NCBI RefSeq assembly: GCF_964355755.1
Contig: NC_092672.1
Coordinates: 33,610,437 to 33,674,436, forward strand
Direction of reading: 5' to 3'
DNA length: 64,000 nt
From: Antedon mediterranea
Lineage: Eukaryota; Animalia; Echinodermata
A model generated the notes under the pieces. It saw only the letters and a program-made list of their open reading frames with translations. It was not told where the DNA came from and ran no database searches. Shown here one piece after another: positions 22,151-64,000 of the stretch (position 1 is its first letter; each line of letters opens with the position of its first letter). The translations under genes were made by a program, and so were the position numbers.

Positions 22151-22159
22151 CTTTATTTA

Positions 22160-22290
22160 ATTCTGAGTCCCCAATCTTCTTTTAAAAGATGCTACAGAGC
22201 GTGCAGAAACAACGACGCTTCCAACTGTCAAATGACTCGGTTGGTAAAAAATTGCGCGCTTTCCACTGTTGGAATTGGTTGCAAGACATA
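22160..22290 (-). mobile_element. CR1/L2 LINE 3' end fragment
   Basis: Peptide FTNRVI...VVSARSVASFKRRL is typical of CR1 ORF2 termini. Confidence 0.5.
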
Positions 22291-22486
22291 TTTTAGGTAG
22301 GCCTACAGTAACCTTGCATCTTCTGGTTTAGAGATAATAATACTTAATTGTGCTTATGCTAGTGTGGTTTATTTATATGAATACATTGATAGCAAATTAA
22401 ATGATTAGTAAGATCCTGATCTGTGCAATTACTGGAAAGATCTAGGCTACAATAGTGTTACATTCGGGAAAATTGATGTTTATCCA

Positions 22487-22860
22487 AGCCTATTTTCCAC
22501 TAGGCGAATTTGTTCGCGCGAATCCAACGTTTCGAAGAGAAAAAAATCGCCTACTCTCTTTCCACTCCAGAGCGAATAGCTGCGACGTTCATGTTCCTCG
22601 CGTGGTTGCTGAGCATTTCGATTCGCATGAGTGCTCATGAAATCGTCATAGCTCATTTCCTGAGCTCTGATTGGTTGCGCAATATTTCGCTTCGCAAAAA
22701 GTAGAAACAATTCGAACTAGTAAATTTCGCTGAAGCGAAAAATCAAAGAAACTAGAATTCGACGAAGAAGGCAGTATGACAGACAGAAACGCGAATACGC
22801 ATGTGCATAGCATGACGCTTTCGATTCGCGCGAACAAATTCGCCTAATGGAAAATAGACT
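22487..22860. mobile_element. Non-autonomous TIR element (Harbinger-like, family E)
   Basis: ~38-bp TIR agcctattttccactaggcgaatttgttcgcgcgaatc. A ~77-bp identical fragment is repeated at about 23380-23456. Confidence 0.75.
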
Positions 22861-23163
22861 TAACTTTATATTGTTGCCCACGCAAAATCTATAAAATATA
22901 AATTACATTAAGTTATCACATGAACGCATTATAACTCCCTCATCTGAGCTACTCCGGTAATCATACATTGACAGACAGGGATAATAGCAGCCTAAGCTAT
23001 GATTATTTCAATTACAACTGCTGTTATTATATCTTTGTTGAAATACTTTATTTTAGAATCAATTATATCTGTTTAGAAAAAAAGTTATAATTGTCCAGTG
23101 ATGTATACAAATAAGTTTAATCACACAAAAATCATATTTAAGGTGTTTTCGTCATACAACTTA

Positions 23164-24215
23164 AGCGTGTTTCCCACTAGAACGCAACGCAAAGTGCTGT
23201 ATTGAGTAATCAACAAGTGGGAACCGACGACGCAATAGTGCTGCAGACATCGCAGATTTGTTCACGCAGGCGGGGGCAAACACAATGATTGGAAGGGCAT
23301 TTTCTTACGTTGCATAGATTGCGTTACTTTGCGTCGTTATTGAGAACCAAGCTTTAGATGTTGTATGTTTGTTCCCCCCAAGGCAGTATGACAGACAGAA
23401 ACGCGAATACGCATGTGCATAGCATGACGCTTTCGATTCGCGCGAACAAATTCGCCTTTCGGCTCATGAAAGGCCGTAAGCCGCAACGCTAGCGAATTGA
23501 TCAATCATAAAGCTTGGTTCCCACTAGAACGTAACGCAAGGACGTAAACGCAACGCAAGTGAATTGACCAATCACAAGCGATGTCCTATTCGCTTGTGAT
23601 TGCTAACTGTCTATTACCTTCGCTTGTCATTGGTTAAAACGCTTGCGTTGCGTTTACGTCCTTGCGTTACGTTCTATTGGGAACCAAGCTTAAGCGACAT
23701 TTGGAATAATCCATCGCTTGTGAGAGAATATTAATCAATTAAAAGTAAATTAAAGAATGTTGATTAATTTTAATTTACCCCAAGCTTGATCAGAAGGGAT
23801 AATACCAAAACACGTGATTCGTTTGTCGCTTGTGATTGGTCAACTAATTGCGTCGCGCTTACGTCCTTGTGGTGCATCCTGTTGGGAACCACAAGCATTC
23901 AATCACGTATGTCAAACAGAATACATCAAACTGCTTCCATTAAGCTGTGTTTACACTGGGAAGAAGATGGGGATAAGGTTTTTTTTTATTTACCGTTTCA
24001 TCTCCTCATTCTGTTTAATAATATTAAAATTACTAAAGCATCGTTCCTACTAGCGACGCAACACAAGGACGTAACGCAACGCAAGTGAATTGACGAATCA
24101 CAAGCGATGGCTTATTCGCTTGTAATTGCTAACTGTCTATAACTTCGCTTGTCATTGGTTAAAACGCTTTCGTTGCGTTTACGTCCTTGCGTTACGTTCT
24201 AGTGGGAATCAAGCT
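23164..24215. mobile_element. Cluster of palindromic PIF/Harbinger MITEs, family D (23164-23353, 23511-23690, partial ~23815-23895, 24037-24215)
   Basis: TIR AGCTTGGTTCCCACTAG, near fully palindromic body, TAA/TTA TSDs. Further degenerate copies at about 29081, 37570, 39355, 41199 and 52000. Confidence 0.8.
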
Positions 24216-24524
24216 TAACAACCAACGCATCTCTCTTTGGAATTGAATCAATTTGCTATTAATAAAACAAAAAAGCACCTGCATTATGTACTGCACTAGG
24301 AGAGAAAAACAACTTTAATTGAAATTAAAATGTATGTTTTGTTGTTTCTGCATCGTTGTTCAATTCAAACACGCATGATAGATTTAATTCCACTTTGAAC
24401 ATCATGGTAATTTATCTTATGGAAACGATACAGTGATCTAAAATTAACTATCTTTATTTTGTTCTTTTTAAGTGATTGTAGCGATCTCGAAATGACATCT
24501 GCTTTCTCTAATTGGTCTCTTTCC

Positions 24525-25210
24525 AATTGTATTAATGTTTTAATATCTGTTTATTATACTCATGTAGAATTGAAATGTCAATTATTTAAACTGTTTTAAA
24601 AGTATGGGACGCCTAGGTATGGGACGCTGTCATTTTTTTGTAATAATGTTTAATAAAATACTGTATCCGTGTATTGTACTCATGTAGAATTGAAATATCT
24701 TGGGAGATTATCAATTATGTCAACTGTTTTAAAAGGTATGGGACGCCTAGGTATGGGACGCTGTCATGAATATAACAGCAACACCGTACACACAATTCTG
24801 AGGATAAAAAATACTCAAGCTGTAATTTTTTAAATAATGTTTCAATATAAATATCTGTTTATTTGTACTTATATAGAATTGAAATATCTTGGAAAATTAT
24901 CAATTATTTCAACTTTTTTTAAAGATATGGGACGCCTAGGTATGGGACGCTGTCATGAATATAACAGTAACACCGTACACAATTCTGAGGATAAAAAATT
25001 CTCAAGCTGTAATTGTTTGTAATGTTTTAATAAATATCTGTTTATTATACTCATGTAGAATTGAAATGTCTTAGGAGCTGAGATTATCAATGATTTCAAT
25101 TGTTTTAAAGGGTATGGGGCGCCTAGGTATTGGACGCTGTCGTGTGAATATAACAGCAACAACGTACATAATTCTTACCATCTAAATATATCAAAGCTGG
25201 AATTGTTTTT
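24525..25210. repeat. Tandem repeat, ~187-bp unit, 4 copies (first shortened)
   Basis: Marker tatgggacgcctaggtatgggacgctgtc at about 24603, 24738, 24926 and 25113. Confidence 0.85.
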
Positions 25211-25849
25211 CTGAGTTCACAGAAAGAAAGACACTCAAATAATAACATAATAAGATTAGAAGTATGGCTAGCAACACATTTTTTGGCTAAGACGTAATCT
25301 GCACTAAAGATAATTGATAGATTATAGATATAAGAACAGACACAGTAATAGTTCAAACAAGCCTAATGGAACAATATGTTTTGAATGTACGCGATGAATT
25401 TGAAACGACATATTACGCACGTATCGCACTTCTTTTAAGGTGTCTGTATGTTCTCTGTGTTTATAATCACACAATAGCCTAGATGATGTACCCGCAACAT
25501 CAAAGATTGAATTACACGTTGTTTTTTGTATGACTTTCAAATAATTGTTTATAATCTAATTTTAGAAACGCTGATTTACAAAAACACGTTGTTGTCCTAA
25601 CAATAAATTAATAGTTAGGCCTACTGTGATTACTCTAACTGCTTAAATTATACTCTCAAATGTTGTAATATAAATTAGATTTAGAGAAAGCAAACATCAA
25701 TTACAAAACTATATCAATGTAGAACGACTGCTAACAAACAATTATCGTATGTTGACGGTAGGATAATATTACTTTAGTTACACATTGTTGATAGCATTTT
25801 ATAATGGTGCTGGTATAACACTTTGTAATATTGTAAAAAATACCTTATT

Positions 25850-27046
25850 TACGCGTAGGCCTTCTGTCTGTACGCGTAGGCCATCTGTCTGTACGCGTAA
25901 GCCATCTGTCTGTACGCGTAGGCCATCTGTCTGTACGCGTAGGCCATCTGTCTGAACGCGTAGGCCATCTGTAGGTACGCGTAGGCCACCTGTCTGTACG
26001 CGTATGCCATCCGTCTGTACGCGTAGGCCATCTGTCTGTACGCGTAGGCCATCTGTCTGTACGCGTAGGCCATCTGTCGGTACGCGTAGGCCATCTATCT
26101 GTACGCGTAGGCCATCTGTCTGTACGCGTAGGCCATCTGTCTGTACGCGTAGGACATCTGAACGCGCGTAAGCCATCTGTCTGTACGCGTAGGCCATCTG
26201 TCTGTACGCGTAGGCCATCTGTCTGTACGCGTATGCCATCTGTCTGTACGCGTATGCCATCTGTCTGTACGCGTATGCCATCTGTCTGTACGCGTATGCC
26301 ATCCGTCTGTACGCGTAGGACATCTGAACGCGCGTATGCCATCCGTCTGTACGCGTATGCCATCCGTCTGTACGCGTATGCCATCCGTCTGTACGCGTAT
26401 GCCATCCGTCTGTACGCGTATGCCATCCGTCTGTACGCGTATGCCATCCGTCTGTACGCGTATGCCATCCGTCTGTACGCGTATGCCATCCGTCTGTACG
26501 CGTATGCCATCCGTCTGTACGCGTATGCCATCCGTCTGTACGCGTATGCCATCCGTCTGTACGCGTAGGCCATCCGTCTGTACGCGTAGACCATCCGTCT
26601 GTACGCGTAGGCCATCCGTCTGTACGCGTAGGCCACATGTCTGTAGGCGTAGGCCACATGTCTGTAGGCGTAGGCCACATGTCTGTAGGCGTAGGCCACA
26701 TGTCTGTACGCGTAGGCCATTTGTCGTGTACGCGTAGGCCATTTGTCGTGTACGCGTAGGCCATTTGTCGTGTACGCGTAGGCCATCTGTCTGTACGCGT
26801 AGGCCATTTGTCTGTACGCGTAGGCCATCTGTCTGTACGCGTAGGCCATCTGTCTGTACGCGTAGGCCATCTGTCTGTACGCGTAGGCCATCTGTCTGTA
26901 CGCGTATTCCATCTGTCTGTACGCGTATTCCATCCGTCTGTACTCGTATTCCATCCGTCTGTACTCGTAGGCCATCTGTCTGTACGCGTAGGCCATCTAT
27001 CTGTACGCGTAGGCCATCTATCTGTACGCACAGGCCATCTGTACGT
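25850..27046. repeat. GC-rich minisatellite, 21-bp unit (tacgcgtaggccatctgtctg), about 57 copies
   Basis: Direct reading. It explains the 7-aa periodic ORFs in many frames. Confidence 0.97.
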
Positions 27047-28158: not shown

Positions 28159-29012
28159 TTTCCCTTTTTTCTAATATGGTGCTTCTTGGTTTTTACATAA
28201 ATGCTATGAGACAGGAAATTAGTACTTACAGGCACTAACCTGGTAATTATTTCTTTTAATTACAGTAGCCTATATACGGTACTCTTAACGGTAAGAACAT
28301 TCTGAAATATGTTGGTGAAAACATCTTATAAATAATATAATAAACAAACCTGTAGCTAGTTAATTTTAATCGCAGTGGTATAATGTAATGGACATCTTTT
28401 TGATGTTTTCTGGCAAATTTTTCAGCAACTATCAGTTGGTCTCCCTTTCTACTATAACAATGCTAGAGAGGATTGTTAATTGTTGGGTTACTAAGCTGAT
28501 CATGCTTACTTTAATAGGCCACTCCAATTTATTTGCGTTGGTTCATGTGTAGCTAGGCCTAATTGTAATAAACCTTGTACGCCCCTTTACTTTGCAAAAA
28601 CATTTCTAAGAAGATCGTATATATAGGCTTGATTGCATCAAAATTGTAATATCTTTTTTTCTTGTTCACGAATGACTGATCTTTCACGCATGACTGATGT
28701 TTTATTTTATGTTTCTATTTTTTGTAAACTATAGTTAGTAGGCCTACTGTACTTAACTACGTAAACAAAATTCATCATTCAAACATCAGAAACATCAGAA
28801 GGGGATCATCTTTCCACTGGTCCTGGATCTGGATGAATACTGACGAAGGACCACATGGGTATATGTGCCAGGGGTGCGTCTCTCGGTGTACAAACATCAT
28901 ACTTAACTGAATTTGTTTTATAATTTTTTTTTTATTAATTTCACAACTTCACAAAACTGACCAAACAATGACGAAAAAACAAACAAACCAACATCCATAC
29001 ATTAATATACAT

Positions 29013-29072: not shown

Positions 29073-30035
29073 TGATCTAATGCTTGGTTATAGAGACGCA
29101 CCACTTTTTGATTTGACCAATCACATGCGATGATTACTCAACCTGTCGTTTGCCATTGGTCAACTTACTTGCGTATACACATCCGTGCGTTGTGTCTCTA
29201 GTGCGAGACCAAGCTGTTGTAAACTCTAAATATGCTATGGGACGTAATAGTCCGTGTTACTTATAACGCAATATAATTGTAGCAGAGACATGTGATAGGT
29301 CTATAGCTAATTGTGATTTACCAACTGAGTGTTCCTACGGCGGTATATCGACGCGTAACCTTGGCATTAGGACATACTTTCAAGTTAGAAGAGCTATTTC
29401 AATTGTGTGATGAAAATGATATATTTTTCCAAAACCATCAATTTTCCGTCACTAATTAAGAATATCTAAATTGAGAACGTACGGTGGTATTGAAGATGAA
29501 AAAATGTGTTTTTGTAAGAGAATAATAAAGAAAAATCGATTGTTAATTTCCACGCGGCTTTCTGTTATATAGTTTACGGATTACAAATCGTTACTTTCAA
29601 GGTTAATGTATAATAAAGCTATAATATCGAATTCATTTAACTTAAAATATGATTATCAACTGCAGGTTGAACTGGAATGTAATTTAAATATGAACTTTTT
29701 AAAGTAATACTAGGCCTATTGATTATGTTCACCAAAGCGTGTCAATGACGCGCAAAGCGACCACGCGTGCATATGTCGGGTGGTTTAAACACGGGCGTAA
29801 TAACATAAACACGTGTGGTGACAACGTTTTCATGAATAATTTTTTCGCCTGAAATTTTCCTTGAAAAATACATATACTGTAAATGTCAGTACACGAATTG
29901 AGCATGCGTTCCCATTCCATAATATTATTTTATTTCTGGATTTTGCGATTAGAAAAAAAATGCCGCGTAAACCAATCAGCACGCAGAAAAATAAACAAAG
30001 CAACATGTGTCTATTACTTGTGTCATACTGCACAC

Positions 30036-30937: not shown

Positions 30938-33281
30938 CATGTTGCTTATCACTTTTACTTGGCTAAACCCGTGGCTCTTATAAAAGCTAATATCATTTGA
31001 GATTCTCTAGGGTACTATCATGTCTGTTGTTAATGTTTAGGCACGTGTTCTCGTGTGTTAACACTACTTATAGGGTAAAATAAACACACATTCAGCCGGC
31101 GACAAAGTATGTTTTTTGGGTCATAAACCGAACTATTACCTTATTCTTTTTTATTTTTAATTCAATTTCTGTTCATAATCCCACAAGTTTGTTAGGTTTC
31201 TTTGTAAACTTGTTGATGTTGTTAATTGTCTTGAACCTCTTACGTTTATAAGAAATGTGTCTGATTTACTGTTTCTTTACAAGAGTGTAGGCCTAAATTG
31301 TTTGTTGTTGTGATCGACTGCTGTGTTCTCTTTTCAGTTTACATTCGCCTTCTCGCGAGACTTAAGTCCACTTTTTATGTTCCTTTTAATAGTAAAAGTT
31401 TCAAAAAGTGGGTTTCAGTGCTTGCCTTTTTAAGGTGAATCCAATGTAAATGTAAATGTTTTTTTTCATTTATTCTTTATTTACAACTCCTTGTACTTTT
31501 TTAAAATAATTGTGCTCAATAGGCTAATTTCTACTATTTAACATAATTATATTTATTTAAAAGTTTGCTTTATCCTATGGCTTTTGCTGTCAGCGGATCT
31601 GGAACGCGCACCTGTCGATTTGAGAGGAGCAAATTCGACACCTCTATTTAAACGTCATCTTAAAACTTGTCTTTTTAATTAATTACTAAGTATTTTTGGC
31701 GCTTTGTTCTTTGTAGGGCGCCATATAAAAACCTGTCCATGTATAGAATAGAATAGAATCTGTTTTCTGTTTCATACCTTCAATATAAGTAACATCTTTT
31801 GTTGCTATTGGTCTTGATGAAATAAAATTAAATTAAATTAAAATAAACAGTATCCTTATACTCGTTCATTATAAATTACGTTTTCTTTACATGGGTTACA
31901 TTTTAATAAGCTTGTATATACGTATGACGTACATTCACACTTTTAGGAACAATAAACATTAATTCCCTAGACATCCGGCGACCGGGAGTTGATCTTCAAA
32001 AACAAGTGCCAACGATGCAAAATGTATAATACATTATTAATGCATTATGGATGTATAGTACTCTGATACGGTCTTATTAATTGTGTCAACTGTCACTTTT
32101 GATAAATAATACATGCTATACAGCTTTAGTGTATTAGACACCCGTGTCACATAAGTGCTACGAACTATAAATTAATGCACACTTATTTGCTAACAAATAA
32201 TAAAAATGTAAATTTGATGTAAATTGTGGAATTCAAATGATGGAAATCACTTACACATTCCATTGTATCCTTTGCCACTAAAAAATTAATGTCGGGGGAA
32301 AAGGTGGGCCTATAAAAACTATTATAAACAGAAGATGGAATAAGAACTCGGTTCCAGTTATCTTATGTAATCTTTTTTTTCTTTTGTGGCGTTAACCACT
32401 ATTTATTCATTTCATCATCAACAGATTAATACAATTATTGAATACTTCTGTGATATTAACAGTAATAACTATATCATTGTTATTCTTACTTTTGTTTTTT
32501 TTATATATATATTTACATTATGTGATTTTATCAATGTTTTTGTTCTTAGAGAATCTGTACATTAATATTTCTTTTCTGTTATATTCACTTTTTTCTTAAT
32601 TTTCTAATATTTTTTTTTGTTCTACAATTCTCTACATCTAAAATTGTAAACACTTAACTAATAAATGTACTGCAGAAGATACATTTAATAATGTAATTAT
32701 TTTCAGTATGTATTTTTTGAGATATACAATTCATTTTGTTACCCTATATACAGACTGTATACATTATTTTAAAATGTATCTTATGGAATCTAAACGATCT
32801 ATATTTGGTAATTTTCTGTATTTTAATTCTTTAATATTCTCTTAAAATAGAAAAATCTGTAGGAGGCTAAAAAAATGCATTTCTGATTTTTTTTAGTCAT
32901 TTTGTATACAAATTGTACCTCAGATAGAACAAATGTAATTCCATTCGTGACAAATTATTTTTATCACCCTCTCGATGCTAAGTTTAACCGGATTAGAATC
33001 TTTCAAATGTGATTTGATCTTTGTTGAATAAAAGAGAATCAATATTATGTAGGCGAGTGCAATTTCCTGCCACTTTGACAATCTTGGCCTTATTTTGCAG
33101 CCCGATATAATCATCGATCAAAAACGTATAACTATTTTAAAAAGAAAAACAATGCAGCTACTATTATCATTATTTTAAAATATAAAACAAGTTTTATTTT
33201 ATGTTTTTGTGTTATGCCATAGTGCCAGAGTAAAAAAAAATGAACTACCCCATGCAAAAGCTTCAGTTGAAGATATCCAAA

Positions 33282-33462: not shown

Positions 33463-36006
33463 TGTATCCAAACTGTTTTATTCCGAAAAACGTACTACGG
33501 TGGGATACTGTTTGCGCGACAAAATGAAAGGATTTCGATATCGCACTTTCAATTTAGTTGAACACAGCTAAATTCAAACGATATATTTCGTGTCATATTC
33601 ATCAGAGAAATTTTAAGTACAACATATTTGACTTGACTACAATCGAGCAATCGATTACAATTCTGATTGAAATAATCACACTATCTATGATAATAGATTG
33701 CAATCTCAACATTTTAATCATGAATAATACCATGACAAATCCTAAATAATCTTCAGGAAAAAATTGGCAGTGTGAAATTTTTTGTTGATTCCAATGTTGA
33801 ACTTATGAAATTTGAACAATTTATGAATAATATTAATGAGTCGATAAATAATTAGTATTTTTCCCACATGTTAGACTTACCCTAAAGTCTGTTATTTCGA
33901 GGCTTTTCGTTTGTCTGACCATGGAGAAACATGAAAAAATGTATCCATGTCTGACATACAAGCTCAAGTATTACACGTATGAAACGCCATATGTGCCAAA
34001 ATATTTAGCTTTCAATTAAAAACTCCGTCTGGAATTTGTTGTTGATGTATTAGTACATGAGTTGTGTAGTGATGTTTTTGTTGGTTTTACGCACTATTAA
34101 ACACAGTAAATGTTACCCGAAATTTGACCGTTAACAAATCCCAGGCGATGAAACATGGAATCTGGGGCGCACGCTCCTCACTTTTTAATATATATTATGA
34201 CTACTACTACTACCACCATGTTAGCGTTGATTCATTAAAAAATTCTTTATTTTTCTCATTTCATTATTTACGAGATATACGTCATGGAGCTAATATATAG
34301 CTCTATGCTTATAATTTATTTTTACTTTATTTTTACTTGTTTGTTCATCTATTATCTTCTGTAAAATATATGACGTAATACATGCCAAATACATTATCAT
34401 CTGAAACACTCCATTATCTCTTTTGATGCTTCTTCAATTACTCACCACTCAATGTAAGATGCCGCCCCAGAATATAGTGTTAGTACGCCCTTTGCAATTA
34501 GTGCAATACCTGTGATGTAAGACCGATCACGTAAAATAGATTTGGATAATGTTAGCCATTATCGTACGCCCGCCTGTTTACAAATACCCAACATCATGTT
34601 TCATTTCCGTGAGAACTTTCATGTTCACTTAAAGGCAGACAGCAATTTATGAGGCGCACTTTAGCAATTTACGTGCAGTCGGATATGAGTTTGCATTACA
34701 ACCTACTTTGGACACTCAACATCCAGGATGACGCCATTGGATGACTCTTTGGATTTTAGACGACCATAGAATGTGTTCGAAGCGAGGCAAGGTTGCAACT
34801 TTAAAATACGTACGGTATCTTGCTTTTGTATCAATAAACGTGCGGTAGCACCATGAACCTACTTAATTTAATATAGTAATTATACGAGCTTACGTCATGG
34901 TTCCGCTGACTTTTAACGAAAATGTGGGGTTGTCCTCTTCTCCGTCATCTGACATTGTTGCAACTTGCTACCAAGTTTTCCACTGATTCTTTCTCATGAC
35001 TACCAACCATTTGTCACCTTGCAAACCATTCATCCTTAATATGTAAATGTCAAATTTATTCATTCTGGTCCGCGCAAGCTTAACTGGAAACTGAAGAAAT
35101 TCGGATTAGGCCCTTCTCACGGACCCACGGTCGCCTACAAGATCAACACAGAGAGACAGAGACAAAAAACACACAGCCGTCCATGTTCGATTCAAACTAA
35201 TGAGCTTAATTTTGATCAGGTGTGTAATGTTGTAATAGGTAGCTGTATCACACGTCAATAGCCGTTCCTCCCTCCCCTGCGAAAGCATTTATTTTTAACT
35301 TCAGTGTGCATATATATTTACGTAATAAGGGCATCTATAATATAAGTACAATAAACAAAATATTACACTTAACGTAGCGACAGGAGGTCTGAGTAGTATA
35401 TTTCATATAGGATTAGAAATCTAATCTTGTGTTGAGCTTGATATTTCAAATCAAAGGCATTTGTAGGGATTTGTATCGATAACGTGATTTCTACATCAAT
35501 TTGAACTCTTCACTGCCAAGTTGGTGATCCGCGCAAAACAATACATGTACGTACAACAGTAACCGATTTCGTGCTTATCTATGATTTGTAATATAAGTGT
35601 ATCACCCGATATACACGAGCTGTGAATGTCTTCATTACAGTGACTTATTTTCAGCATGATACTGGTGAAGTTATGTGGTCACTTTGTGTCCTAATCGGAT
35701 AAGCAATTACAGGTCACTAAGTGAATATGTTTGGTATAAAAATAACAAGTTTCTGTGAAATAAAAAACTAAAATTGACCAATCAATTAAACGAATAAGTG
35801 ACCGTCGTCTGTTTGTGCTTTCTATTATTAGACGTCTTGATCAAAGAATTGGAGATCTAGTTACTGAATTAGTAGGCCTGCATGTTTATTCGTCCTTGCA
35901 GTAGGCCTATGGCACTACACTGAACGCTGATAAAGAATTGAATGTAGAAACATGTTTGGTGTTACTCCTATTTTGCTTTGGGACAATATTCATCATAATA
36001 ACCATT

Positions 36007-38889: not shown

Positions 38890-39110
38890 GCCGTCTACGG
38901 ATCCCCGGCAGCCAACAGTACAGCGCCTACCAGAAGCACACCGGGGGACGATCCCCTACTCTTGTTGAATAGTGTACCAAATTATCGAACCAACGTGCAC
39001 ATTATTTTTGTACACGGAACATCGACAACGGCTTTACATTCCATCCGAAGAATACAATGTTGTGTGTTAAAGATAGGTTTGATCTCATGACTAGGCCTAT
39101 CACATGCTAG
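38890..39110 (-). mobile_element. Degenerate SINE (Nin-like core)
   Basis: Motifs cccctactctt..gaatagtgt and acggctttacattccatccgaag resemble conserved SINE cores. This is recognition only, not an alignment. Confidence 0.4.
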
Positions 39111-41596: not shown

Positions 41597-42730
41597 ATGG
41601 TGGTAAACGAAACTGGAAACTGGCCAACGGTCGGTTACGACGTAGAACCTTACTTGTACACTGAAATAGACCGATGGGTGATCGGTGCCCTTAACCCGGT
41701 TATCATCGGCATTGGGGTCATCGGTAACTTTATCACCATTCTTGTGCTAACTAGATGTCCACGTATGCAGACATCGTTGAACGTTTACTTGACAAGCTTA
41801 GCCATTGCTGATATGCTGTTCCTGCTGATGGCACCGATCATAGCCTGGCAATCGCTTGCAAGCAGTGACATTCATGATATGTATGACGCGCCAAATATTA
41901 GCAATACTTTTTGTAAGATCAATAACCTGATCATAGAGACGGCATACCAAGTTGGATATTTAATGATATTGTGCATCTCAGTTGAAAGATTCTTAGCTAT
42001 CTGTAGGCCTCTACAGTATCGCAATTACGGAACTAGATTACGAGCGGCTAAAATATGTTGTGTTGTTTGGCTTTGTGTATTGATTTACCAATCCAGACTT
42101 CTGTTGACAATGACTGTTGAAGTCGCCAAATACCCGTGGCCACATATGTACAAAGGTCAACCAAACGTGTCGACCGTCTGCAGCATATGTTCACCAAAAA
42201 ACTCTACCAGATGTAGAATTATTGATAACTTATACACTTTTGATATCGTAATCGGATTGTTGGTGATTCTAATTCTGATACCCCTTTACGCTACAATGAT
42301 CAGGCGATTGCGTAATTCTCGTTTTGTAAGTTCCAGTGGAAAGAATCGTCGCAAAGCTCAGGACCTAAATATATTTCGAACGGTTTTACTGACAGTCAGC
42401 ATATTCGCACTATGTTTTACACCTTATAATATTTTAAACACTATATACATGTATTTTGAAGTAGATCCAGACGTCGTCAAAAAAAGCGTCAACGTATTTC
42501 GGCCACTAATGTACCTAAACGCCGCAGTCAATCCTGTCATTTACAATATGACAAATACGCTTTATCGTCAATCATTTATTGAGTTTTTCTGCTGTTGTCG
42601 TAAATCGCCAACAAACTGTAACATGAACTCGCCAAAACAGCAGAGTTCCCTGTTAAATGATTCGTCGAAACCAACGATTAAGTCAACAATTATGAACCAA
42701 TCAGATGAATCTCCTACAACTAAAGTTTAG
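41597..42730 (+). CDS. Class A (rhodopsin-like) GPCR, peptide-receptor-like orphan, 377 aa, single coding exon
   Basis: Seven hydrophobic segments with GN (TM1), LAIAD (TM2), C..ERF (TM3), W (TM4), P.Y (TM5), CFTP (TM6), NPVIY (TM7) and a CCC palmitoylation site. Acceptor tttcag lies one base before the ATG at 41597. Confidence 0.95.
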   Translation: MVVNETGNWPTVGYDVEPYLYTEIDRWVIGALNPVIIGIGVIGNFITILVLTRCPRMQTSLNVYLTSLAIADMLFLLMAPIIAWQSLASSDIHDMYDAPNISNTFCKINNLIIETAYQVGYLMILCISVERFLAICRPLQYRNYGTRLRAAKICCVVWLCVLIYQSRLLLTMTVEVAKYPWPHMYKGQPNVSTVCSICSPKNSTRCRIIDNLYTFDIVIGLLVILILIPLYATMIRRLRNSRFVSSSGKNRRKAQDLNIFRTVLLTVSIFALCFTPYNILNTIYMYFEVDPDVVKKSVNVFRPLMYLNAAVNPVIYNMTNTLYRQSFIEFFCCCRKSPTNCNMNSPKQQSSLLNDSSKPTIKSTIMNQSDESPTTKV

Positions 42731-45283: not shown

Positions 45284-45734
45284 TATAATTTCTTGTATAT
45301 ATAGGTTCACATTCAGTTACTATGTGAACCTGTAAATAAATGAAAATTAAGAAATCAAGTTGCCTTGGCATTTGATTGGCTTATTTCCAAGTCATTGCGC
45401 ATAACCCTATTGGCTCATTTCACAACTCTTAGCATAAACAGATTATGAACTGATTACTATGTGAATGGATTCTCTTTATCATATTATATGTTACGATAAG
45501 CTGGAGTATTAATCCATTTTGTTTCGATGTCTCCATATCTTATCACTCTCAAATAACAGAATGTTTAGGCCTACATGACGTATTCCTCGTTCCGTATATA
45601 AACAAACAAATGTTTAAGCAGAAATTATTTAAGTCCTATAATATTAGATACATTGTGCAATAACACCTTGAGTTGATCGTCACTGATACTGTTACATTAA
45701 TATGTGAAATTTGTAATGGGTAAAGCTCTCTGAA

Positions 45735-46183: not shown

Positions 46184-46803
46184 TGAGACCAAAACGTAAC
46201 CATGTAGAAATCGTATGCGCAGTCTGAATGTTCTATTGACATGTCTGCGTCGATGATTAATTGACAACAAAAATATATTGCTGAATAATTCTGTTTTAGT
46301 TTCATCACAATCGGACTACGAAAAGTTCACTTTCTTACGACTGGTAATTTTAAGTAGTTGGTAATATTGATAAAATATGCAATTTTTATATTTGAATTAT
46401 CATTATTTGCCTGCCATCTTCTGTCATTAAAAATTGCGTTAATCTATAGAATATTAAATTATGCATTTGACCATATGTATGTTGTTAGCGTGAGACCAAA
46501 ACGTAACCATGTAGAAATCGTATGTGCAGTCTGAATGTTCTATTGACATGTCTGCGTCGATGATTAATTGACAACAAAAATATATTGCTGAATAATTCTG
46601 TTTTAGTTTCATCACAATCGGACTAGGCCTACGAAAAGTTCACTTTCTTACGACTGGTAATTTTAAGTAGTTGGTAATATTGATAAAATATGCAATTTTT
46701 ATATTTGAATTATCATTATTTGCCTGCCATCTTCTGTCATTAAAAATTGCGTTAATCTATAGAATATTAAATTATGCATTTGACCATATGTATGTTGTTA
46801 GCG
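46184..46803. repeat. Near-perfect 307-bp tandem duplication
   Basis: Units start at 46184 and 46491. The second carries a 6-bp GGCCTA insertion. Confidence 0.95.
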
Positions 46804-47702
46804 TGGCCGGTGTTCACCCATACAACAATCGTGTTTTTAATATATGGCTAAGCAGTGGTTTCTTCATAAATCTCCTTAATTATCGATTTGATTATATTTA
46901 AATTGTAGTGCCTGGTGATTGGCTAGTGGTTATGTCATCCACATCACATCCAATCACCGGGTCTTAATTGAATGAAAACAGCGATCCCTGATCCGGGATT
47001 GGCTGGCTATGTATAGTTGCGATTCGTTACCTAGCGGTCATTTTGAAAAGTACACGCAGGGCAAACTTAATCACGAACAAACGAAGTACCTATTATTATT
47101 CACACAAGAAGTAAGACAACGGTGAGTATATAGATCATGATTACACGTTGTATCTACTACACTTAAGATTAGCCTAGGCCTACCTATGCAGTATCAATGT
47201 CGGCAAATCATATGGTTTACAAGTAAGAATAGAAGGCCTAGGCCTAGTATCCTTGCTGATTTTGTAATTTTACATGTAGGCTGAGACAACAAATAGTTAT
47301 TGTATCAGATGTAGGACTACTTCAGGTCATAAAATGCTACTTTGTCATAAAAACATTAGCGTAGATCAATCGCGGCAGAAACCTATACTAATTAAAATTA
47401 TAGCATCTACAATTCTAAGCCAATAACAATATAGTATTTTATCTGGTATATTGATGAAGTAAGCCTACACTAGGGTCTTCACATTAACATACAATGTAAT
47501 TTAATAACTGTTTAATAAACATTATAACCAACAAGGTTAAATCTCGTTGCACATGTGCAGTAAACAATATATTAGGCACGCGACCGTTTCGTTGTTACCC
47601 ATCATGGATTATTCTTTAATTCATGATTAAACTGTAACATTGTGGGCGGTCCGCGCTCTGTCGGCGAGAGTCAAGGAACCCTTGATCTCACGTCGATGCA
47701 TA

Positions 47703-50700
47703 TAGTCGGTGGCAGGAGGGGGAATCACCACCCAAAAGGGGACAAATTGCCATCCAACTTTTCTAGACTAGAATTTTCCGTAGATTATGAATATGGAAGG
47801 TAATCGATCAGGATAGGAAGCGTTTTCGAGATATAAGGGGTCAAAGTTCAAAATTGACCAATTACAACAATGTATTATGTATATGTATTATAACAAATTT
47901 ATTGAAGCACAATTTGGTCTTTTATTACATTTTTATGATTATAAGTGTCTATTCAATCACCTTATGAAAAAAAAATCTTTTGTGATTAAGGGTCAAATGT
48001 CAATATTGACCAATCATAGAACGTACCTATAAAACCAAATAAAAACTAATATTTAATCAAAATTGGATGTTTTCTCATCCTGTTAATCAATCATACGCAA
48101 TGTAAAAGAGCGAATACATCATTTCATCAGTTGACATAAGGTCAATTTCATCAGTTGACATAAGGTCAAAGGTCAACATTTTAATACGCGTATTAGATGC
48201 AAAGTTGTCCAAACTAGGATATTGATGGTTTTACAAGTAATCAAATTATTTGATTAGTAAAGTTATGTTATTTCAGTATAATACTGTATTTAATCAAATC
48301 AGACTTCGATCAGGATAGGAAGCAAATAGGAAGAGATAAGGGGTCAAAGTTCAAAATTGACCAATTATAACAATGTATTATATACTATTATAACCAATTT
48401 ATTAAAGTTCAGTTTGGTCTTTTAATACATTTGTATGGTTATAGGTGTTGTATGGTGTTATTCAGTCGCCTTATAAAACAAATACTTTGCAATTAAAGGT
48501 CAAATGTCAATATTGACCAATCACACAATTTGCATTTAAAACCAAATAAAAACTAACATTTAAGACAAAATGTTATGTTTTATCATTCTGTTAAGACATC
48601 TATCAATCATACACAATCAAAAGAGCACATTTATCATTACACAAGTTGACATGGGTCAAAGGTCAACATGTGAATAAATGATATACTAAATAATGCAAAG
48701 TTATTCAAACTATGAGATCGATGTTAATAAATGTAATAACGTTATTTGATCAGTGAAGTTATGGTATTTTTATATTTTTTCTAGTGCACATTATTTTAAA
48801 TGTATTAATATAGGCCTAATACTGTAAAATAAATAATAAAATTAATATTATGACGATTAAAATGTTATGATGTTAAAATGTTGCGCTGACCTTCAATGAT
48901 TTGCCACTATACAGTTGCATTTATTAGGGCTACAATATTCGTTTTTGGAAAATAAACTACTATTCATCAGAACCAGAGAATACCAATTCGTACAGGATAG
49001 GGCATAGGCAGATCCAGGTGGCCAAACTCAATCCACAACTCACTACACAGACAGACCACAATTTTTATATAGTTTGGCCCATACAGGAAAGAGTTTCCTG
49101 TATACAAAGGATTCTAAAATAACCTATATGGATTTGCCCGAATGAACCCTCTAAGGATCCTTTTGGGATCTCTATGTGGTGTGCTACATAAGGCCCTGTA
49201 TTAGAAATTAGTATGGGGTAAATAGTTCATGGATGAACTATGAAATAAAACTAAATGTGCACCCTCAATATTTAAATAACATTTATGGATTTGCCCAAAT
49301 GAACCCAGAGGCCAGTCGTTCTCCATGGATGGACATTAAGCCCCATAATGGAAATATAAGGGGTGACACTGTGAGTTCATATAGACAGGGGCGGCCCATG
49401 AATTAAGCTGCCTGTGCACTCTCGATCCTTAAGAAAAGTTTATGGATTGGCCCAAATTAACCCAAGGGCCGGTCCTCCATGGACATTAAGCCCCATAATG
49501 GAAATATAATGGGTGACACTGTGGGTTTATATAGACAGGCAGAACCATGGAATAAAGCTGCCTGTGCACTCTCGATCCTTAAGGAACACTTATGGATTTC
49601 CCCAAATTAACCCAAGGGCCGGTCCTCCATGGATGGTTATTAAGCCCCATAATGGAAATATAATGGGTGACACTGTGGGTTTATATAGGCAGGCACATGG
49701 AATAAAGCTGCCTGTGCACTCTCGATCCTTAAGGAAAATTATGGATTTACCCAAATTAACCCTCAAAGGCCGGTCCTCCATGGATGGACATTAAGCCCCA
49801 TAATGGACATATAAGGGTTGACACTGTGGGTTCATAATAGACAGGCACATGGAATAAAGCTGCCTGTGCACTCTCGATCCTTAAGGAACCGATTTGGATT
49901 TGCCTAAAATGAAACAACAGCAGGTCATCTATTTAGACCCTTCTGTGGTTCTCTACTGTATGTTCAGTTCTACATTTGGCCCCTGTATCGGATCAATGCA
50001 TTTGGCTACATAAGTTACTGTGTTAGAAATATATCGGGTAACTAAAACTGTAGGTTCCAATATTAAGCCATGGGAAAAGCCTGTCTGTGCACCCTCAATC
50101 CTTTTTAAAGGAACCCATATGGATTTTCCAAAATGAACCAAGGGTAACTTCTGAATTCTCTATGAGCCGTACATTCCGTTTATTGGAGATACATGGATAC
50201 CTGATTGAAATTGCTCAAAAGAAAGACATAGTACTGTATAGTAATAGTATTATTCCCCTTCCACGCCTCTTTGAATTAAATCCGCCCTGATAGGCTCTTA
50301 TGTACAGGATTTCAAGGCAATAATCACACTTGTATTTTTCAAACATTATAATCTGTTAGATTGAATAAAAATATCTATTATAAACAATTTGCCGTTAGAA
50401 ATCTCTATGCCATGTCGTTATTTAGATGAGAAAAACAGGTCAAAGGTTAAAATTACAGAAAAAATAGGTGTTTCAGTCACTTTTTGAAAAAAATGTTGTA
50501 TTATGGCAAGTATAAACATATATATTGTGAACAATTTGATACCAAAATTGGCTCCTTACGACAAATATTTATTAATTTATGTTTTTATAACCTTATTCAA
50601 TTATGTCAAAGGTTAATAACCACACTTCCGGTCATTTTCAAGCAATATCATCTGTTATACTGAATATAAATGTATATCTTGGGAACAATTTGCTCCTATA

Positions 50701-51061
50701 TTTAATTCTCTCCGACCTGCCGTTACTTAGATATAGCAAAAAGAGGTCAAAGGTCAAAATTGCTAACAATGGGGTTTCCAGTCATTTTTTCAAAGAAAAT
50801 TCTGTTAGAGCTAATATAAACATATACATTGTGAACAATTTGACACCAAAATTATCTCACTAAGTCCAGAATTTCCAGAGATATAGCATGTTTTTATATT
50901 GGTCAATTTTGAACTTTGACCCCTTATATCTCGAAAACGCTTCCTATCCTGATCGATTACCTTACATATTTGTAATCTACGGAAAATTCTGGTCTAGAAA
51001 AGTTGGATGGCAATTTGTCCCCTTTCGGGTGGTGATATCCCCCCCTCCTGCCACCGGACTA
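47703..51061. mobile_element. Academ-like non-autonomous DNA transposon (~3.36 kb)
   Basis: TAG...CTA termini, ~160-bp TIR, 3-bp TSD ATA confirmed by the intact opposite host TIR. Internal ~500-bp duplication (47805/48307), ~150-bp tandem array (49080-50140), many AAGGTCAA motifs. Confidence 0.8.
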
Positions 51062-54013: not shown

Positions 54014-55823
54014 ATTTAATAATGAGTTACGTAAGCTACTCAATTTACCAGTTACAATGCAAGCATGACGTTTGTTAAGAATAACGTTCCCTCATTTTAT
54101 GAATATTGGAGGAACTCCATTCATAGTTTTATTTATTTTTTATTTTAAAAATATAATAAATATAAAGGAACAGAATTCATGACAGTTGTAATAGTCTAAT
54201 TGTCACAGTCAAAAGTGACGGATATGTAAAGTTAAACGCAAAGGGTAATTTGCATAGAACTAGTCAGGTGTATTACCGTATAAAAGAATTGGGGAGGAAT
54301 GTAGTAATTACGCCTCACATCAACCTTGTAGAGAAGGGAGGTGTCGCACCTCAGCAATAATACAGATTGACCATTTGCTGCCCGTTGGGCTGAAGTTGGT
54401 ACCAATACACAACTATCTGACCACCATTTGTAGTAAATCGTAAACCAAGCCGAGTATACACATGATTGTTTATGTATGATTGGAATGTAATTGGTAGTGA
54501 ACAAGTCCACAAGTGACCGGCGGACAAAGAAGTAAAGACATTCAGTTGCTAATATTATATATCTGTATACTTTTAATTGCGTTCTTCAGTAGCCATATAG
54601 TTAACTTCAATCTGGGCGTGACACTAATCAAAACCATATTAATTTACTTCCACGATTCAACATGCGTCGGCATTGTTGAACATTTTAAGTTATTGTAGGC
54701 TGTTCACTATGTCGGTCGGTCGGTTGGTTGGTTGGTCGGTCGGTCGGTAAACACTAACTCAAATTTGCGCACGCGACTGTAGCCCAAGTATCAAGCTCAA
54801 ATAGTATACGTATGAAACGCCATATGTGCCAAAATATTTATCCTTTTACTAATTTTAAGTCAAAACTCCGTCTGGAACCCAGATGCAGTTGTTTTTGTGA
54901 AAGGTGCTATTGTTAATTTCCTGGTAAAATTGTTTCTCTTCTTGTTTTGTATGTGTTTTGTATATGGATGTACTATCCGAAATAAAGGAAACGAATGAAT
55001 GAATAAAGTGATATTATAGGCCATGATAACCTATGTTGTTTGTTGACGTCAACAACATAAAATGAAGCTATTCAATTACTGTGTGTTTCTACATACACGC
55101 GTACATGGATGATGCATAAATATTCAATTGTTCTTTTATTTCTATATACACTACATACACGTATGGAGAATGCATATTTTAGGATCTGTCCTCCTACGCA
55201 GAGCGCATATCAATGCATCTTACAAACATTTTTTTTCTAACAAAGTATTGCCACATCACAGAGGGCGCATGTTAACAATAATACAAATTTTCCTTCTTTT
55301 ATTATTAATTGTAAAGTTATTAATGAACCAATTTTCTTAAATTATAATAGGCATGGTCTATAATATACTTAAACCGAAATGTATAACTTGTAAATTGATA
55401 TTAATTAATCTCAATATTTATTTTTTAAATAATTTTGATATTGAAAATGTGTGTAGTTGGTCGCTTTCTTGTCGATGCTTTTATTGTAGAACGTAATTTA
55501 TTTATTTTTCTCTGTTCTGGGTTGACCAACTAGCATAGGTGTTTAGAACCTGTTTGGTCTTTCCGTGCCTCCTTTTATAATTGTTTTGTCTTCTTTGTTA
55601 TGTATATGGCAGAAATTGAATAAATATAAAATAAATAAATAAAATTTATGTAGCTGGTAATATTAAAATTGTAGGCGTGCTAACAATCAAACAAGCAAAG
55701 GTACTATATACTTGGCAAATTATATTTTGGCAAGTAAAAAGCAAAATTTAAAAAGAAGCATTATTAATAAATGCAGTATAACAGTATTATTATAAGTAGG
55801 TGAAATAATGGAATATGGTCTAA

Positions 55824-56409
55824 AGCCTTGTCTACACTATTAAACTTTATTTGTCAAACAAGTTTGATGTGCCTATGGTAGTAATACGCTTAAATATGGC
55901 AGTGATATGACATCATCATGTCCATATATGGGCACATCACATTTTTTGACACATAAAGTTTATAGTGTAGACAAGGCTTAAGTTAGGAATGTAGAATGAA
56001 TACATCCATCATCTCACTATATCCAATCAAAATTAATATATTAATGAAATTATTATTATTATTACAATATTGTATATATTGCATGTAATGTTCAAAGAGA
56101 GACAATTAGGTTAATTGGGCGTAATTAAAAAGCGATTTATTCTCAACTAATGTATCACTAATGACGGAATAGTGACGTAAGTGTGTAGAATAACTGTACA
56201 CGTCAATATATTCTTGCTTACCCATTTCCATCTAATTTGTCTCCTTAAAGCTCTGTCTACACTATCAAACTAGTTTGACAAAAAAAGTGTTATGTGCCCA
56301 AATATGGTAGTGATATGTTCAAATATGGTAATGATATGACATCATCATGGCCATAATATGGGCACATCACATTTGTCACATAAAGTTTGATATAAGTGTA
56401 GACAGAACT
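55824..56409. mobile_element. Two PIF/Harbinger family C MITEs (55824-55978, 56249-56409)
   Basis: TIRs and TAA TSDs on both copies. Confidence 0.8.
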
Positions 56410-56676
56410 TAATATAAACAGATATCCCTGCAGTTAAATATACTGATATATTTCTATTGAATGTTTCTATTCAACGGCCAACGTCTTGTAAAATGTTGAA
56501 ATATTAATTTGTCAAGTGATCCTAAAACCTTACAATTTATAAATTGCTAAAATTCAAATAGGCTAAAAATGTTAAAAACGTTTAAAAATATTGAAAATGT
56601 AAAAACATTTTATAAAGTTTCATTGTTTACATAGTCTTGTATTACATAACATTTTATCGATGGTGACGTGAATTAA

Positions 56677-57879: not shown

Positions 57880-58497
57880 ATTACAATGCTCTGGGTATTA
57901 GTGGCTGGATCTTACTGGAGATACACATTTTATTTTGTTGTGTAACATTTTTTGTGTTATTTCTGTGTTATTTGTTTTCTATGACAGTACCGTAATATAC
58001 GGTGAGAGTCAATAAGAATTAAACTAAATTAAATTAAAATAAGCATTGCAAAAAAATTACAATAATGTGGGTATAAGTGGCTGAATCTCAATGGAGATAC
58101 AATTAAAATAGGCCTAAGCATTAAATGAAATTACAATGCTGTGGGTATGAGTGTGGCTGCATCTCAATAGAGATACAACTAAAATAAGCATTGAAAATAA
58201 TCACAATGCTGTTGGTGTGGCTGGATCTCAATAGAGATAAAAATAAAATAAGCATTGAAAAATGACAATGCTGTGAGTATCAGTGGATATATCTCAATAG
58301 AGATAAAAATAAAATAAGCACTGAAAAATGACAATGCTGTGAGTATCAGTGGATATATCTCAATAGAGATAAAAATAAAATAAGCACTGAAAAATGACAA
58401 TGCTGTTGGTATCAGTGGATGTATCTCAATAGAGATAAAAATAAAATAAGCACTGAAAAATGACAATGATGTGGGTATAAGTGGCTGGATCTCAATG
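57880..58497. repeat. ~61-bp satellite derived from the Penelope-like terminal sequence
   Basis: Unit aaatgacaatgctgtgggtatcagtggctggatctcaatagagat.. matches 5420-5465 and 45152-45190. Confidence 0.85.
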
Positions 58498-58622: not shown

Positions 58623-58792
58623 CAGGTGACGTAGGCCTAAACGCAGACGCCTGGGCCCTTGGTTTAGGAATCGTAAGTGGCCTTCTAAAGCTGGAGGCTC
58701 CGACGTTTTAGCCTTTTCGACATAATTATTGTATAAGCTCTGGTGGGGCCCCTGGGTTTAACCAGTGAGCGCTCATAGACGTTAAGCCACTG
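58623..58792. mobile_element. Degenerate hAT-type MITE related to 12951-13114 (inverted)
   Basis: Ends caggtgacgta../..gttaagccactg and a shared internal ggtttaaccag/gggcccc motif. Confidence 0.55.
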
Positions 58793-59544: not shown

Positions 59545-59940
59545 ATCACTGAAGGTAATCATCACTAAAGGTAAGCACAATATAAATACGTACGTGTGTG
59601 CGTGCGTTGATGGTAACAGCTTACGCACGCGCGTGTAATATCACTAAAGGTAAACATCACTAAAGCTAAGTATTTTTATACTGACACGATATCAATACGT
59701 GAGTGTGTGCGTGCGTTGATGGTAACAGCTTACGCACGCGCGTTTAATATCAAAAGGTAAGCATCACAAAAGGTAAGCACGACAAAAATACGTACGTGTG
59801 TGCGTGCGTTGATGGTAACAGCTTACGCACGCCCGTGTAATATCACTATAGGTAAGCATGTTTTAACTGACACAATATCAATACGTAGGCCTACGTGTGT
59901 GCGTGCATCAAAACGTTGATGGTAACAGCTTACGCACTTG
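59545..59940. repeat. Complex tandem repeat (~90-110-bp units), 4 copies
   Basis: Marker gttgatggtaacagcttacgcac occurs four times. Confidence 0.85.
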
Positions 59941-61905: not shown

Positions 61906-62444
61906 GTCGGTTTTTTTTTTTACTAAAAAATGTTAAGCCTAGCCTAGCCTACACCCCTTTTCCTTTTCACTTCGGCAGCAGGCAGGGCGGGGGTTAGTTT
62001 GAGTTAGTTTGGTCGGCGGTGCATTGCAGCAGTCAATGGTGCATAATTAGAGAGAGCCTAGCTCGCTGAATCTGTCAGCATACTGGCCTAGCTAGGGATT
62101 CTTTGCCTAGCTAGGCCTAGCAACATGTATATTAGACGACAAGGCAGGCTAATGATGGAGACCTACTTTGTTTTGTCTTATTAAAATATTGTTTGTGGCG
62201 TTGTGATGATGATGTATTTATACCAGGGCTACACGACCTAACTAACTAAAAAGGCTAGGACTATTTATCTATATTTAATTGGTTTAATTATTAAATTAAA
62301 AGGAAGACTAGCCTAGACATAGCTATTATTTTATAGCCTTTCACGGCCCTTTCACGATTTAATTATTTGTTCTTGTCTTCAATTGATCAGGGAGATTTAT
62401 TATAAATAAAATTTTTAAACATGTTGTTTGTTTTTTCCCAACAG

Positions 62445-62487: not shown

Positions 62488-62762
62488 GTACTGTACAAAC
62501 AGGGAACTTTGTTGTTTAAATGAATAATAATGCTCAACATATGATATCGATAAGCCTAAATCATGCTAAGGCCAAGCATGGAATTATAAAATTTTATTTT
62601 TTTTTGGGCCAAGGGCTTAGGTGTACATGTCAATCGTTTTAATCTCTGCCATATGTTTATTTACAATGTATAATTTCTTTCTATTTTTAGTCTTTGTCAT
62701 TACATTTTTTATACTGAATCTAATTTAAAATCGTTGATATTTTAATTTGCTCAACTTTTCAG

Positions 62763-63766
62763 GTCCTGTACCTAGTGTTCCAAAAGACCAACCTACGTCA
62801 TCAACCACAAGACAACCCCCTCAAGACATACAACCGGCTGACCCAAGTCAACACAAAGTGGTCATAAGCCAAAAACCAGTGGTCAGCAGGCAGACGCTTA
62901 TTGTTAATGCCCCACCGTCTCGACAACAATCAAACATTCCTACAACACGAACGCCGATGTTTGTACGGGCTCCAGGGACGACAACTAGTGTTCCTATTAG
63001 CCATGTGTCAACAAGTAAACATGTTAGACCTATTCAAGTTCGACCCTTACAACCGAGTGATCTTCGTATGTTTAAGAGTTCTCAGATTATACGCAATCCT
63101 GTCCAGTCAACGTCGATGATTACTAACCCTCCGATTACTATACCGCACACCGCGAGACATCAAGTGATTTCTATGAATTCTCCACGTATACAAACTATTG
63201 TACGCTACCCCCACGGGAGAGCACCGCGCCCAACAGCAATCACATCATATCAACGACAAGTTATGCTAACCTCAAGTACTGGCAATCCACTTCCATCAAA
63301 TACTGTTAGAGGAAATCCTACAGTTGCTGTTGCCATTCCCATTCAAAGTCCTCCAACATCACACATAGCCTATCAAGTACCATCAACAGCTAGGCCTAAA
63401 CATGTTCGGGTTATGAAGTCACCTGTTCCACTGGCTAATTCAGTGCAGATTCGTCCAAGACATCTCCTTAGGCCCGTCAAACCGATAGGATATTCAAGCC
63501 CACGATCATCCGGATTTAGCCAGAATCTTGATCCCTTTATGGTTATTCGAACCACTCTACCCCCTACCAGAATGCCTACTGGAAATGTAGTTAGTACCCC
63601 TCATATTTTACATAATACACCTTCTTCAACGAGGCCTTCTACTTCCACCTCAATTCTTCAGAACAAGAACCGAGTGAAGGACTTACCGCATGCCATAGTC
63701 AAACCGCAAGTTTTAACTCACATAATTGATGGGTTCGTCATAGAGGAGGCCTCGGAACCATTTCCG
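62763..63766 (+). CDS. PHC: Polyhomeotic-like protein (PHC/ph, PRC1 subunit), large low-complexity exon ending in HD1; gene continues beyond the window
   Basis: P/S/T/Q-rich region ending in AIVKPQVLTHIIDGFVIEEASEPFP, the Polyhomeotic homology domain 1. ttttcag acceptor and CCG|GTAATT donor. Confidence 0.88.
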
Positions 63767-64000
63767 GTAATTTTATTATGATTTCTTCTATAATTATTAA
63801 TAAACAATTCATATTTTCTTTGTCAAAAAGATGTACTTTACTGTATACACGTACCATTGCGTAAGAAGGATATGAATTATAAAATATATGAAATTGGTTT
63901 GTTCATAGTGTACTTTTAAAAGTTGATTAACTTAACTACACTATCTTAAATAGTGATGTTAATATTTCATGATAGTAATTTTGTCTTTTTAAAGATTACA

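Follow-up and report, generated by a model that had tools for sequence, protein, structure and literature searches.

The locus at positions 46184-46804 of the window (the whole 64-kb stretch of DNA analysed here) raises the question of what process made two adjacent units of a tandem duplication, 307 and 313 bp long, differ by six bases. Apart from these bases and a single substitution, the units are the same; the second carries the octamer TAGGCCTA where the first has a plain TA. The pair was singled out in an earlier note made from the sequence alone, and alignment of the two units confirms it.

A six-base insertion at TA

The window contains 32 exact copies of TAGGCCTA, including the one at 46624-46631, a density of about one per 2 kb. 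With the large tandem arrays masked (59,323 bases remaining) and the motif excluded from the training set, the expected numbers are 0.41, 0.70 and 0.93 at Markov orders 2, 3 and 4, respectively (P ~1e-41 at order 3). The excess in the window is genuine: the earlier estimate of about 30 copies against fewer than about one expected agrees with 32 against 0.70 (order 3), and the comparison with a Markov background that the earlier note proposed, run within the window, returns the same large excess. Among the 16 palindromes of the form TA-xy-y'x'-TA, only TAGGCCTA is enriched more than about two-fold in the masked window; for example, TACATGTA is observed 4 times, with 3.4 expected. Altogether, 23 words were tested for enrichment, so that the weaker P values given below are hints only. 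Higher-order expectations computed from the unmasked window were discarded because the motif itself and a 21-bp satellite enter the training of such models. This satellite (25850-27042, 57 copies) has a unit that holds TAGGCC but never the full octamer, and it skews Markov backgrounds.

For an empty-site search, the six inner letters were deleted from each TAGGCCTA site and the resulting form was compared with the window using BLAST. Alignments of paralogous repeats at 75% identity or higher cover 11,076 bases and take in three exact sites, located in three unrelated repeats; at all three, sister copies have a plain TA. The sites with actual or candidate sisters are the following.

46624-46631, TAGGCCTA, filled site in the second unit of the 307/313-bp tandem duplication
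46317-46318, empty TA at the matching place in the first unit
58109-58116, TAGGCCTA in a 66-bp array, one of seven units filled and six empty
59886-59893, TAGGCCTA in a repeat of ~93-100 bp, one of four units filled, the others with plain TA (two) or TG (one)
2360-2366, seven-base form TAGGCTA, filled in one of the three covering copies of a young repeat, with empty sisters near 7370 and 18321
58632-58639, TAGGCCTA, probable sister on the minus strand at 13099, of loose similarity and with one A missing relative to a clean TA fill
15631-15638, TAGGCCTA, carried by a miniature element whose sister shows 73% identity and reads CA here

The pair at 46624 and 46317, with one filled and one empty copy, carries no information on polarity. 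In both multi-copy arrays, the empty state is the majority, as the earlier note maintained, and therefore insertion rather than deletion took place at 58109 and 59886. The seven-base form at 2360 is a five-base insertion relative to its two empty sisters. GGCCTA accounts for three of the seven six-base indel events in the paralogue alignments and GGCTA for one of the four five-base indels, and no exact TAGGCCTA site is common to both aligned paralogues anywhere in the 11,076 bases. By the evidence of sister copies at three repeat sites, TAGGCCTA is a six-base insertion at TA. Among the further pairs proposed in the earlier note, the one in the 59.5-kb repeat (59886) holds up; for the satellite at 58109, the contrast of one filled and six empty units stands, but the period is 66 rather than 61. 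The remaining two are not confirmed: the emptied form of 58632 finds no sister by BLAST, and the sister of 15631, which has gaps adjoining the site, is too divergent for a verdict.

The verified seven-base insertion at 2360 sits in one of four copies of an element (1-362, 1982-2755, 7000-7837 and 18043-18736; 93-96% identical) that has GACA/GACC microsatellite ends and is presumably Helentron/HINE-like.

The other sites in the window are listed below; the contigs mentioned are those of the four sequencing runs described further on.

415-422, exact TAGGCCTA, no sister in the window
2808-2815, exact TAGGCCTA, no sister in the window
3588-3595, exact TAGGCCTA, no sister in the window
6391-6485, cluster of three exact TAGGCCTA (at 6391, 6435 and 6478)
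7905-7912, exact TAGGCCTA, no sister in the window
10162-10327, cluster of three exact TAGGCCTA (at 10162, 10262 and 10320)
11589-11596, exact TAGGCCTA, spanned by listed contigs in 4/4 runs without a six-base gap
13285-13292, exact TAGGCCTA, spanned by listed contigs in 4/4 runs without a gap
16503-16510, exact TAGGCCTA, spanned by listed contigs in 4/4 runs without a six-base gap
22298-22305, exact TAGGCCTA, spanned by listed contigs in 4/4 runs without a gap
25616-25623, exact TAGGCCTA, spanned by listed contigs in 4/4 runs without a six-base gap
28554-28561, exact TAGGCCTA, no sister in the window
28739-28746, exact TAGGCCTA, no spanning sister in the window
29711-29718, exact TAGGCCTA, no sister in the window
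31288-31295, exact TAGGCCTA, no sister in the window
35902-35909, exact TAGGCCTA, with a one-mismatch copy at 35873, 29 bases upstream
39092-39099, exact TAGGCCTA, no sister in the window
45566-45573, exact TAGGCCTA, no sister in the window
47170-47246, region of two compound sites, given in the next two lines
47170 and 47175, compound site, a seven-base form sharing its TA with an octamer
47233 and 47239, compound site, a one-mismatch octamer sharing its TA with an exact octamer
48811-48818, exact TAGGCCTA, within the inverted-repeat element 47703-51061
62112-62119, exact TAGGCCTA, in a tract full of related short words
63391-63398, exact TAGGCCTA, in the polyhomeotic-like exon, codons Ala-Arg-Pro-Lys

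Of the 32 sites, 31 fall outside both coding stretches that were identified. One of these is a single-exon gene for a rhodopsin-type receptor of 377 amino acids (41597-42727, plus strand), with the best foreign match (59%) to a protein of Anneissia japonica named somatostatin receptor type 4-like. The other is a large exon (62738-63778, plus strand) of a polyhomeotic-like (SAM-domain) gene, 61% identical to an Anneissia protein and matching a protein labelled Antedon mediterranea in 335 of 337 positions. As Anneissia is a crinoid, these matches place the DNA of the window in a feather star. The site at 63391 was considered as an in-frame scar and rejected; given that the Anneissia orthologue is one residue longer at this place, not two residues shorter, the coding octamer is probably a chance codon match.

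Contigs from four runs, all of one sample that is possibly the window's own source, were compared with the stretch 7850-25840, in which 5 of the 10 TAGGCCTA sites are spanned by the contigs listed. None of these contigs shows a six-base loss at any of the five sites, and no GGCCTA indel is found among the 12 listed of 97 indel rows, in which high-copy repeats dominate. The five sites are probably common to both chromosomes, with the reservation that contigs drop alleles and that the sample may be the source of the window. At 19812-20735, an interval that holds neither TAGGCCTA nor a one-mismatch form in the window, a contig of run X3 (record 22) falls six letters short of the window's length.

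Related forms, decay and flanking bases

The octamer is accompanied by a characteristic set of shorter words. TAGGCTA and its reverse complement TAGCCTA occur 16 times, versus 6.0 expected at order 3 (P 5e-4) and 8.9 at order 4, and TAGCTA is mildly raised (21 versus 13.2 expected, P 0.03). TAGGTA/TACCTA is not enriched in the window (16 versus 23.3 expected), and nine- and ten-base forms with an extra G number 0 and 0 in the window. There are 32 one-mismatch copies of TAGGCCTA, with 14.9 expected, and a simple decay calculation gives a mean divergence of ~6% per base. Thus, the insertions have piled up over a long time, and some events, such as those at 46624 and 2360, are young. The "very active" transposon envisaged in the earlier note gains no support from this degree of decay or from the lack of six-base loss at the five spanned sites in the one sample.

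The bases that precede the TA are distributed unevenly (G 21, C 15, T 15 and A 13 of 64; chi-square P 2e-4), with T depleted (15/64 versus a background of 0.35). Such a bias toward G and C ahead of the TA fits what is expected of a sequence-reading enzyme. Of the 31 intervals between neighbouring sites, five measure at most 100 bases, with 1.65 expected (P 0.02); the signal of clustering weakens at 200 bases (P 0.08) and at 500 bases (P 0.78). At two TAGGCCTA sites (47170-47182 and 47233-47246), the TA of an adjacent scar is used a second time. The close spacing and the re-use of TA are in agreement with local hopping. The verified seven-base form, the pool of decayed copies, the G/C-biased flanks and the probable chance coding site are new in the present analysis.

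Two further observations concern short words in the window. TACAGTA/TACTGTA is mildly enriched and dispersed (26 versus 15.9 expected, P 0.012 uncorrected), possibly as a second footprint family, of the Sleeping Beauty type, left by CAG-tipped elements. Short runs of TAGCC and TAGC units adjoin scars at 61934-61951 and 62086-62119, as if these scars were seeding microsatellites.

Comparison with transposon excision footprints

Excision footprints that consist of a few bases flanked by TA are textbook knowledge. We consider it probable that TAGGCCTA is the excision scar of a TA-targeting transposon of the IS630-Tc1-mariner/pogo type, with predicted GGC...GCC tips. The insertion, its forms, its age and the flank bias are direct observations; the mechanism, which we infer from them, would run as follows. 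The element would land at a TA, duplicating it, and a staggered excision, by analogy with Sleeping Beauty, would leave the terminal bases of the element as 3' overhangs on both host ends; excision would take place in the germ line, and the break would then be end-joined. Overhangs of GGC could pair via the self-complementary GC and be filled in to yield TA-GGCC-TA, so that one product would dominate, and head-on joining of the overhangs would yield the minor forms TA-GGC-TA and TA-GCC-TA. Two plain GG overhangs joined together, or a four-base GGCC overhang, would give the same octamer. GGC tips are preferred over a two-base cut of the Tc1 type because octamers and heptamers are seen without an excess of TAGGTA; combined with a three-base stagger, such tips would cover the major form, the minor forms and the lack of TAGGTA. 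Once made, the scars persist and decay, as the counts show, with the average of ~6% per base.

As regards membership in this superfamily, an empty TA, with TA flanking both sides of the insert, is seen at all three testable exact sites and also at the heptamer at 2360. The pair of reverse-complementary heptamers typical of the three-base stagger of Sleeping Beauty is present (16 versus 6.0 expected), and the two-base stagger of the Tc1/Tc3 type, in which TA-xx-TA is the commonest form, is not borne out (TAGGTA/TACCTA, 16 versus 23.3). By this analogy, the octamer most likely works like a footprint of the IS630-Tc1-mariner/pogo elements.

According to the available portions of the published accounts, a cut by Tc1/mariner transposases produces 3' overhangs, and the end-joined footprint consists of the first or last 2-4 bases of the element between TAs; the canonical Sleeping Beauty footprints, TACAGTA and TACTGTA, consist of two TAs that enclose three bases from the start or the end of the element (PMC6943129), with TACGTA as a minor form (bioRxiv 10.1101/659086). 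The window resembles this system in that TA flanks a few fixed bases, in the presence of a reverse-complementary pair of heptamers, and in the minor TA-xy-TA form (TAGCTA, comparable to TACGTA). In contrast, the inner bases are GGC/GCC rather than CAG/CTG, and the eight-base form, which is not listed for Sleeping Beauty in these portions, dominates over the seven-base form (32 versus 16). Also unlike Sleeping Beauty footprints, the scars in the window are natural and inherited and occur about once per 2 kb, and their source element is only predicted.

With Tc1/Tc3 of Caenorhabditis elegans, the likeness is that TACATGTA, termed a rare footprint of Tc1 in the accessible text of PMC3520976, and TAGGCCTA both consist of TA, two bases per end, and TA. 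The commonest Tc3 footprints are the +4 forms TACATA and TATGTA (bioRxiv 10.1101/659086; PMC13148408, as far as their accessible text goes), the GG analogue of which, unlike in Tc1/Tc3, is not enriched in the window. Germ-line repair after Tc1 excision in C. elegans is varied, with 26 products in 103 animals in the excerpt at hand (PMC4490562), and, on the side of the pogo elements, excerpts on Passer report footprints of 0-4 bp (PMC9976928). Rice provides another precedent of natural DNA-transposon excision recognised as a source of small indels; unlike the one fixed word of the window, the rice scars, in the part of the report available, are mostly irregular deletions or fillers, with only 8 perfect ones of 94 (PMC4423477). 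The uniformity of the single fixed product thus exceeds that of both germ-line Tc1 repair and rice excision, which counts against reading the octamer as an excision scar.

The pogo superfamily shares with the predicted element the TA duplication, found in part of its members, and GG tips, found in some. In the portion of the catalogue in PMC7386202 that was available, the Fot/Fot-like group includes GG-tipped elements (e.g., with tips GGCAA and GGGGT); one GG-tipped row has GGC tips and one has a TA duplication. The GG-tipped rows come from fungi, a red alga, an oomycete and an amoeba and mostly have TAA/TAAA duplications; the element with GGC tips comes from a fungus, its duplication being TAA, and two echinoderm pogoR rows carry CAG tips. 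No tips that start with TAGGCC or GGCC appear among the catalogue rows listed (4 of the 99 "GGG" places; PMC7386202). In the literature searched, which took in few subscription journals and few repeat-database reports, neither TAGGCCTA as a footprint nor footprints on such a scale were found.

The search for a donor and the alternative explanations

No donor element for TAGGCCTA is seen in the 64-kb window, which counts against the excision scar as well. Ungapped and gapped scans of the window for TA-flanked inverted-repeat elements with GG...CC tips, including the TA-GGC...GCC-TA elements that the earlier note proposed to look for, find none; of the three matches returned, one is a weak pair and the other two are internal to longer inverted-repeat elements (22503-22844; 47816-50944). 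A Pfam search of 105 of the 159 stop-to-stop frames listed in the window, with tandem arrays, obvious repeats and the receptor gene left out, detects no transposase domain, and the only match above the cut-off is a reverse-transcriptase zinc finger. This zinc finger (zf-RVT, E 8e-9) belongs to the 3' portion of a LINE at 14611-15471 (minus strand). The earlier note had seen no source element in the window, and neither do the scans; for its suggestion of a footprint of a TA-targeting transposon with GG(C)...(G)CC ends, the tips fit the spectrum of forms, and no donor in the window backs it.

Other elements are present in the window. The site at 48811 lies in a 3.36-kb element (47703-51061) that also carries a 150-bp minisatellite and has inverted repeats of ~160 bp, TAG...CTA tips and a three-base ATA duplication; it looks like a non-autonomous Academ element. 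A miniature element of ~165 bp with AAG...CTT-type ends and TAA/TTA flanks is found at 11849-12007, 16016-16185, 55816-55982 and 56245-56412; the contigs cover it at a depth thousands of times that of single-copy sequence, although depth is not a copy number.

A scan of metagenome contigs for three TAGGCCTA motifs in a row returned 116 loci, and the collection is estimated to hold ~3,800 stretches with three motifs. Many of the longer loci (40-46% G+C) carry further dispersed copies, and judging from composition, repeats and a reverse-transcriptase frame, they look like animal host DNA. Fifteen such loci (142,360 bases, selected for the motif) contain 112 octamers, 63 heptamers and 12 nine-base forms; before the TA, G is favoured (82/224) and T is avoided. 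Among viral contigs, the 121 loci with two motifs close together show no dispersed enrichment. One metagenome locus, L179, from an organism other than the feather star, holds 12 scars in 10.9 kb and two 81%-identical copies (7048-7272 and 8136-8369) of a miniature element of 225-234 bp; each copy is bordered by TA at either end, the surrounding sequences are unrelated, and the tips are GG...CC (GGG/GGA, not GGC). This shows that elements of the needed shape occur beside scars, though in another organism. A search with the tips of this element gives 6 scattered matches; its autonomous partner was not found, and there is no transposase in 24 long frames from the 116 loci. Apparent shared ends among the metagenome loci were dismissed as mostly telomere-like low-complexity tracts. 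Another locus, L137, contains an element (8627-9896), presumably hAT-like, that has the tips TAG...CTA and a perfect duplication of eight bases.

The alternative that survives best, although we regard it as unlikely, is a process without a donor, in which the TA is opened by a transposase that has been domesticated or is integration-defective, or by some other nuclease that cuts at TA, and a fixed GGCC is left behind. To our knowledge, no enzyme opens TA sites in this manner. Such a process would be in line with about one scar per 2 kb and yet no matching element in 64 kb rich in miniature transposons, with the dominance of a single product, unlike measured germ-line excision spectra, and with the occurrence of the same word in the DNA of unrelated organisms, namely in the metagenome stretches estimated above. 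However, elements are short-lived and scars are permanent, so that more scars than donors are to be expected; the sample of 64 kb is small; and GG-tipped, TA-flanked elements do sit beside scars in L179. It is similarly doubtful that a widespread mutation process of animals writes GGCC into TA with a near-fixed outcome and no lasting donor, be it through such a transposase or through elements that leave almost on landing; in several phyla, a genome would then have received insertions numbering in the order of 100,000.

Considerably less probable is the addition of GG to both break ends at a TA by telomerase or a terminal-transferase-like polymerase, followed by joining. The telomere repeat of animals is TTAGGG, which includes TAGG, and the halves TAGG and CCTA match it, one per strand; the nine-base forms of the scar-rich metagenome loci also speak for this route. 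However, pairing by telomerase would favour a T ahead of the TA, and T is depleted there (15/64 versus 0.35), forms with an extra G are missing from the window at both nine and ten bases, and a separate nuclease would be needed for the TA duplication. Telomerase addition is largely refuted by these flank and length tests.

Just as improbable is the notion that selection has long maintained the octamer as a binding site or structural word, from which the empty copies arose by TA-to-TA slippage deletion. TAGGCCTA is a perfect palindrome, and the pair at 46624 on its own is indifferent to polarity; in the accessible text of PMC3520976, the analogous TACATGTA in Phytophthora is read as a transcription-factor site and not as a footprint. 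Against this notion, the non-filled copies amount to 6/7, 3/4 and 2/3 in three unrelated repeats (58109, 59886 and 2360, respectively), aligned paralogues have no exact site in common, and the excess of one-mismatch copies (32 versus 14.9) is as under neutral decay. Finally, an assembly or library artefact is hardly credible: the octamer does contain restriction-site palindromes (those of StuI and HaeIII), and a single sample, possibly the source of the window, underlies all four runs, but decayed and seven-base forms exist, five sites are spanned with the word intact by listed contigs of all four runs, and the word is also dispersed in unrelated metagenome contigs.

Returning to the excision scar, if this reading is correct, a single octamer preserves a trace of past transposition every 2 kb or so. 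Were the window typical, a genome would carry scars numbering in the order of 100,000; this extrapolation combines the 31 sites outside coding sequence in the 64 kb with runs of 265-410 million letters. That a single repair product prevails, where the spectrum measured for Tc1 in the germ line is varied, would be surprising to specialists. For motif finders, there is a caution that a palindrome can be very abundant in the non-coding DNA of invertebrates and yet not be a binding site. If the octamers are scars, their counts, decay and flanks would give access to the germ-line jump rates, target preference and repair pathway of an element that is possibly lost.
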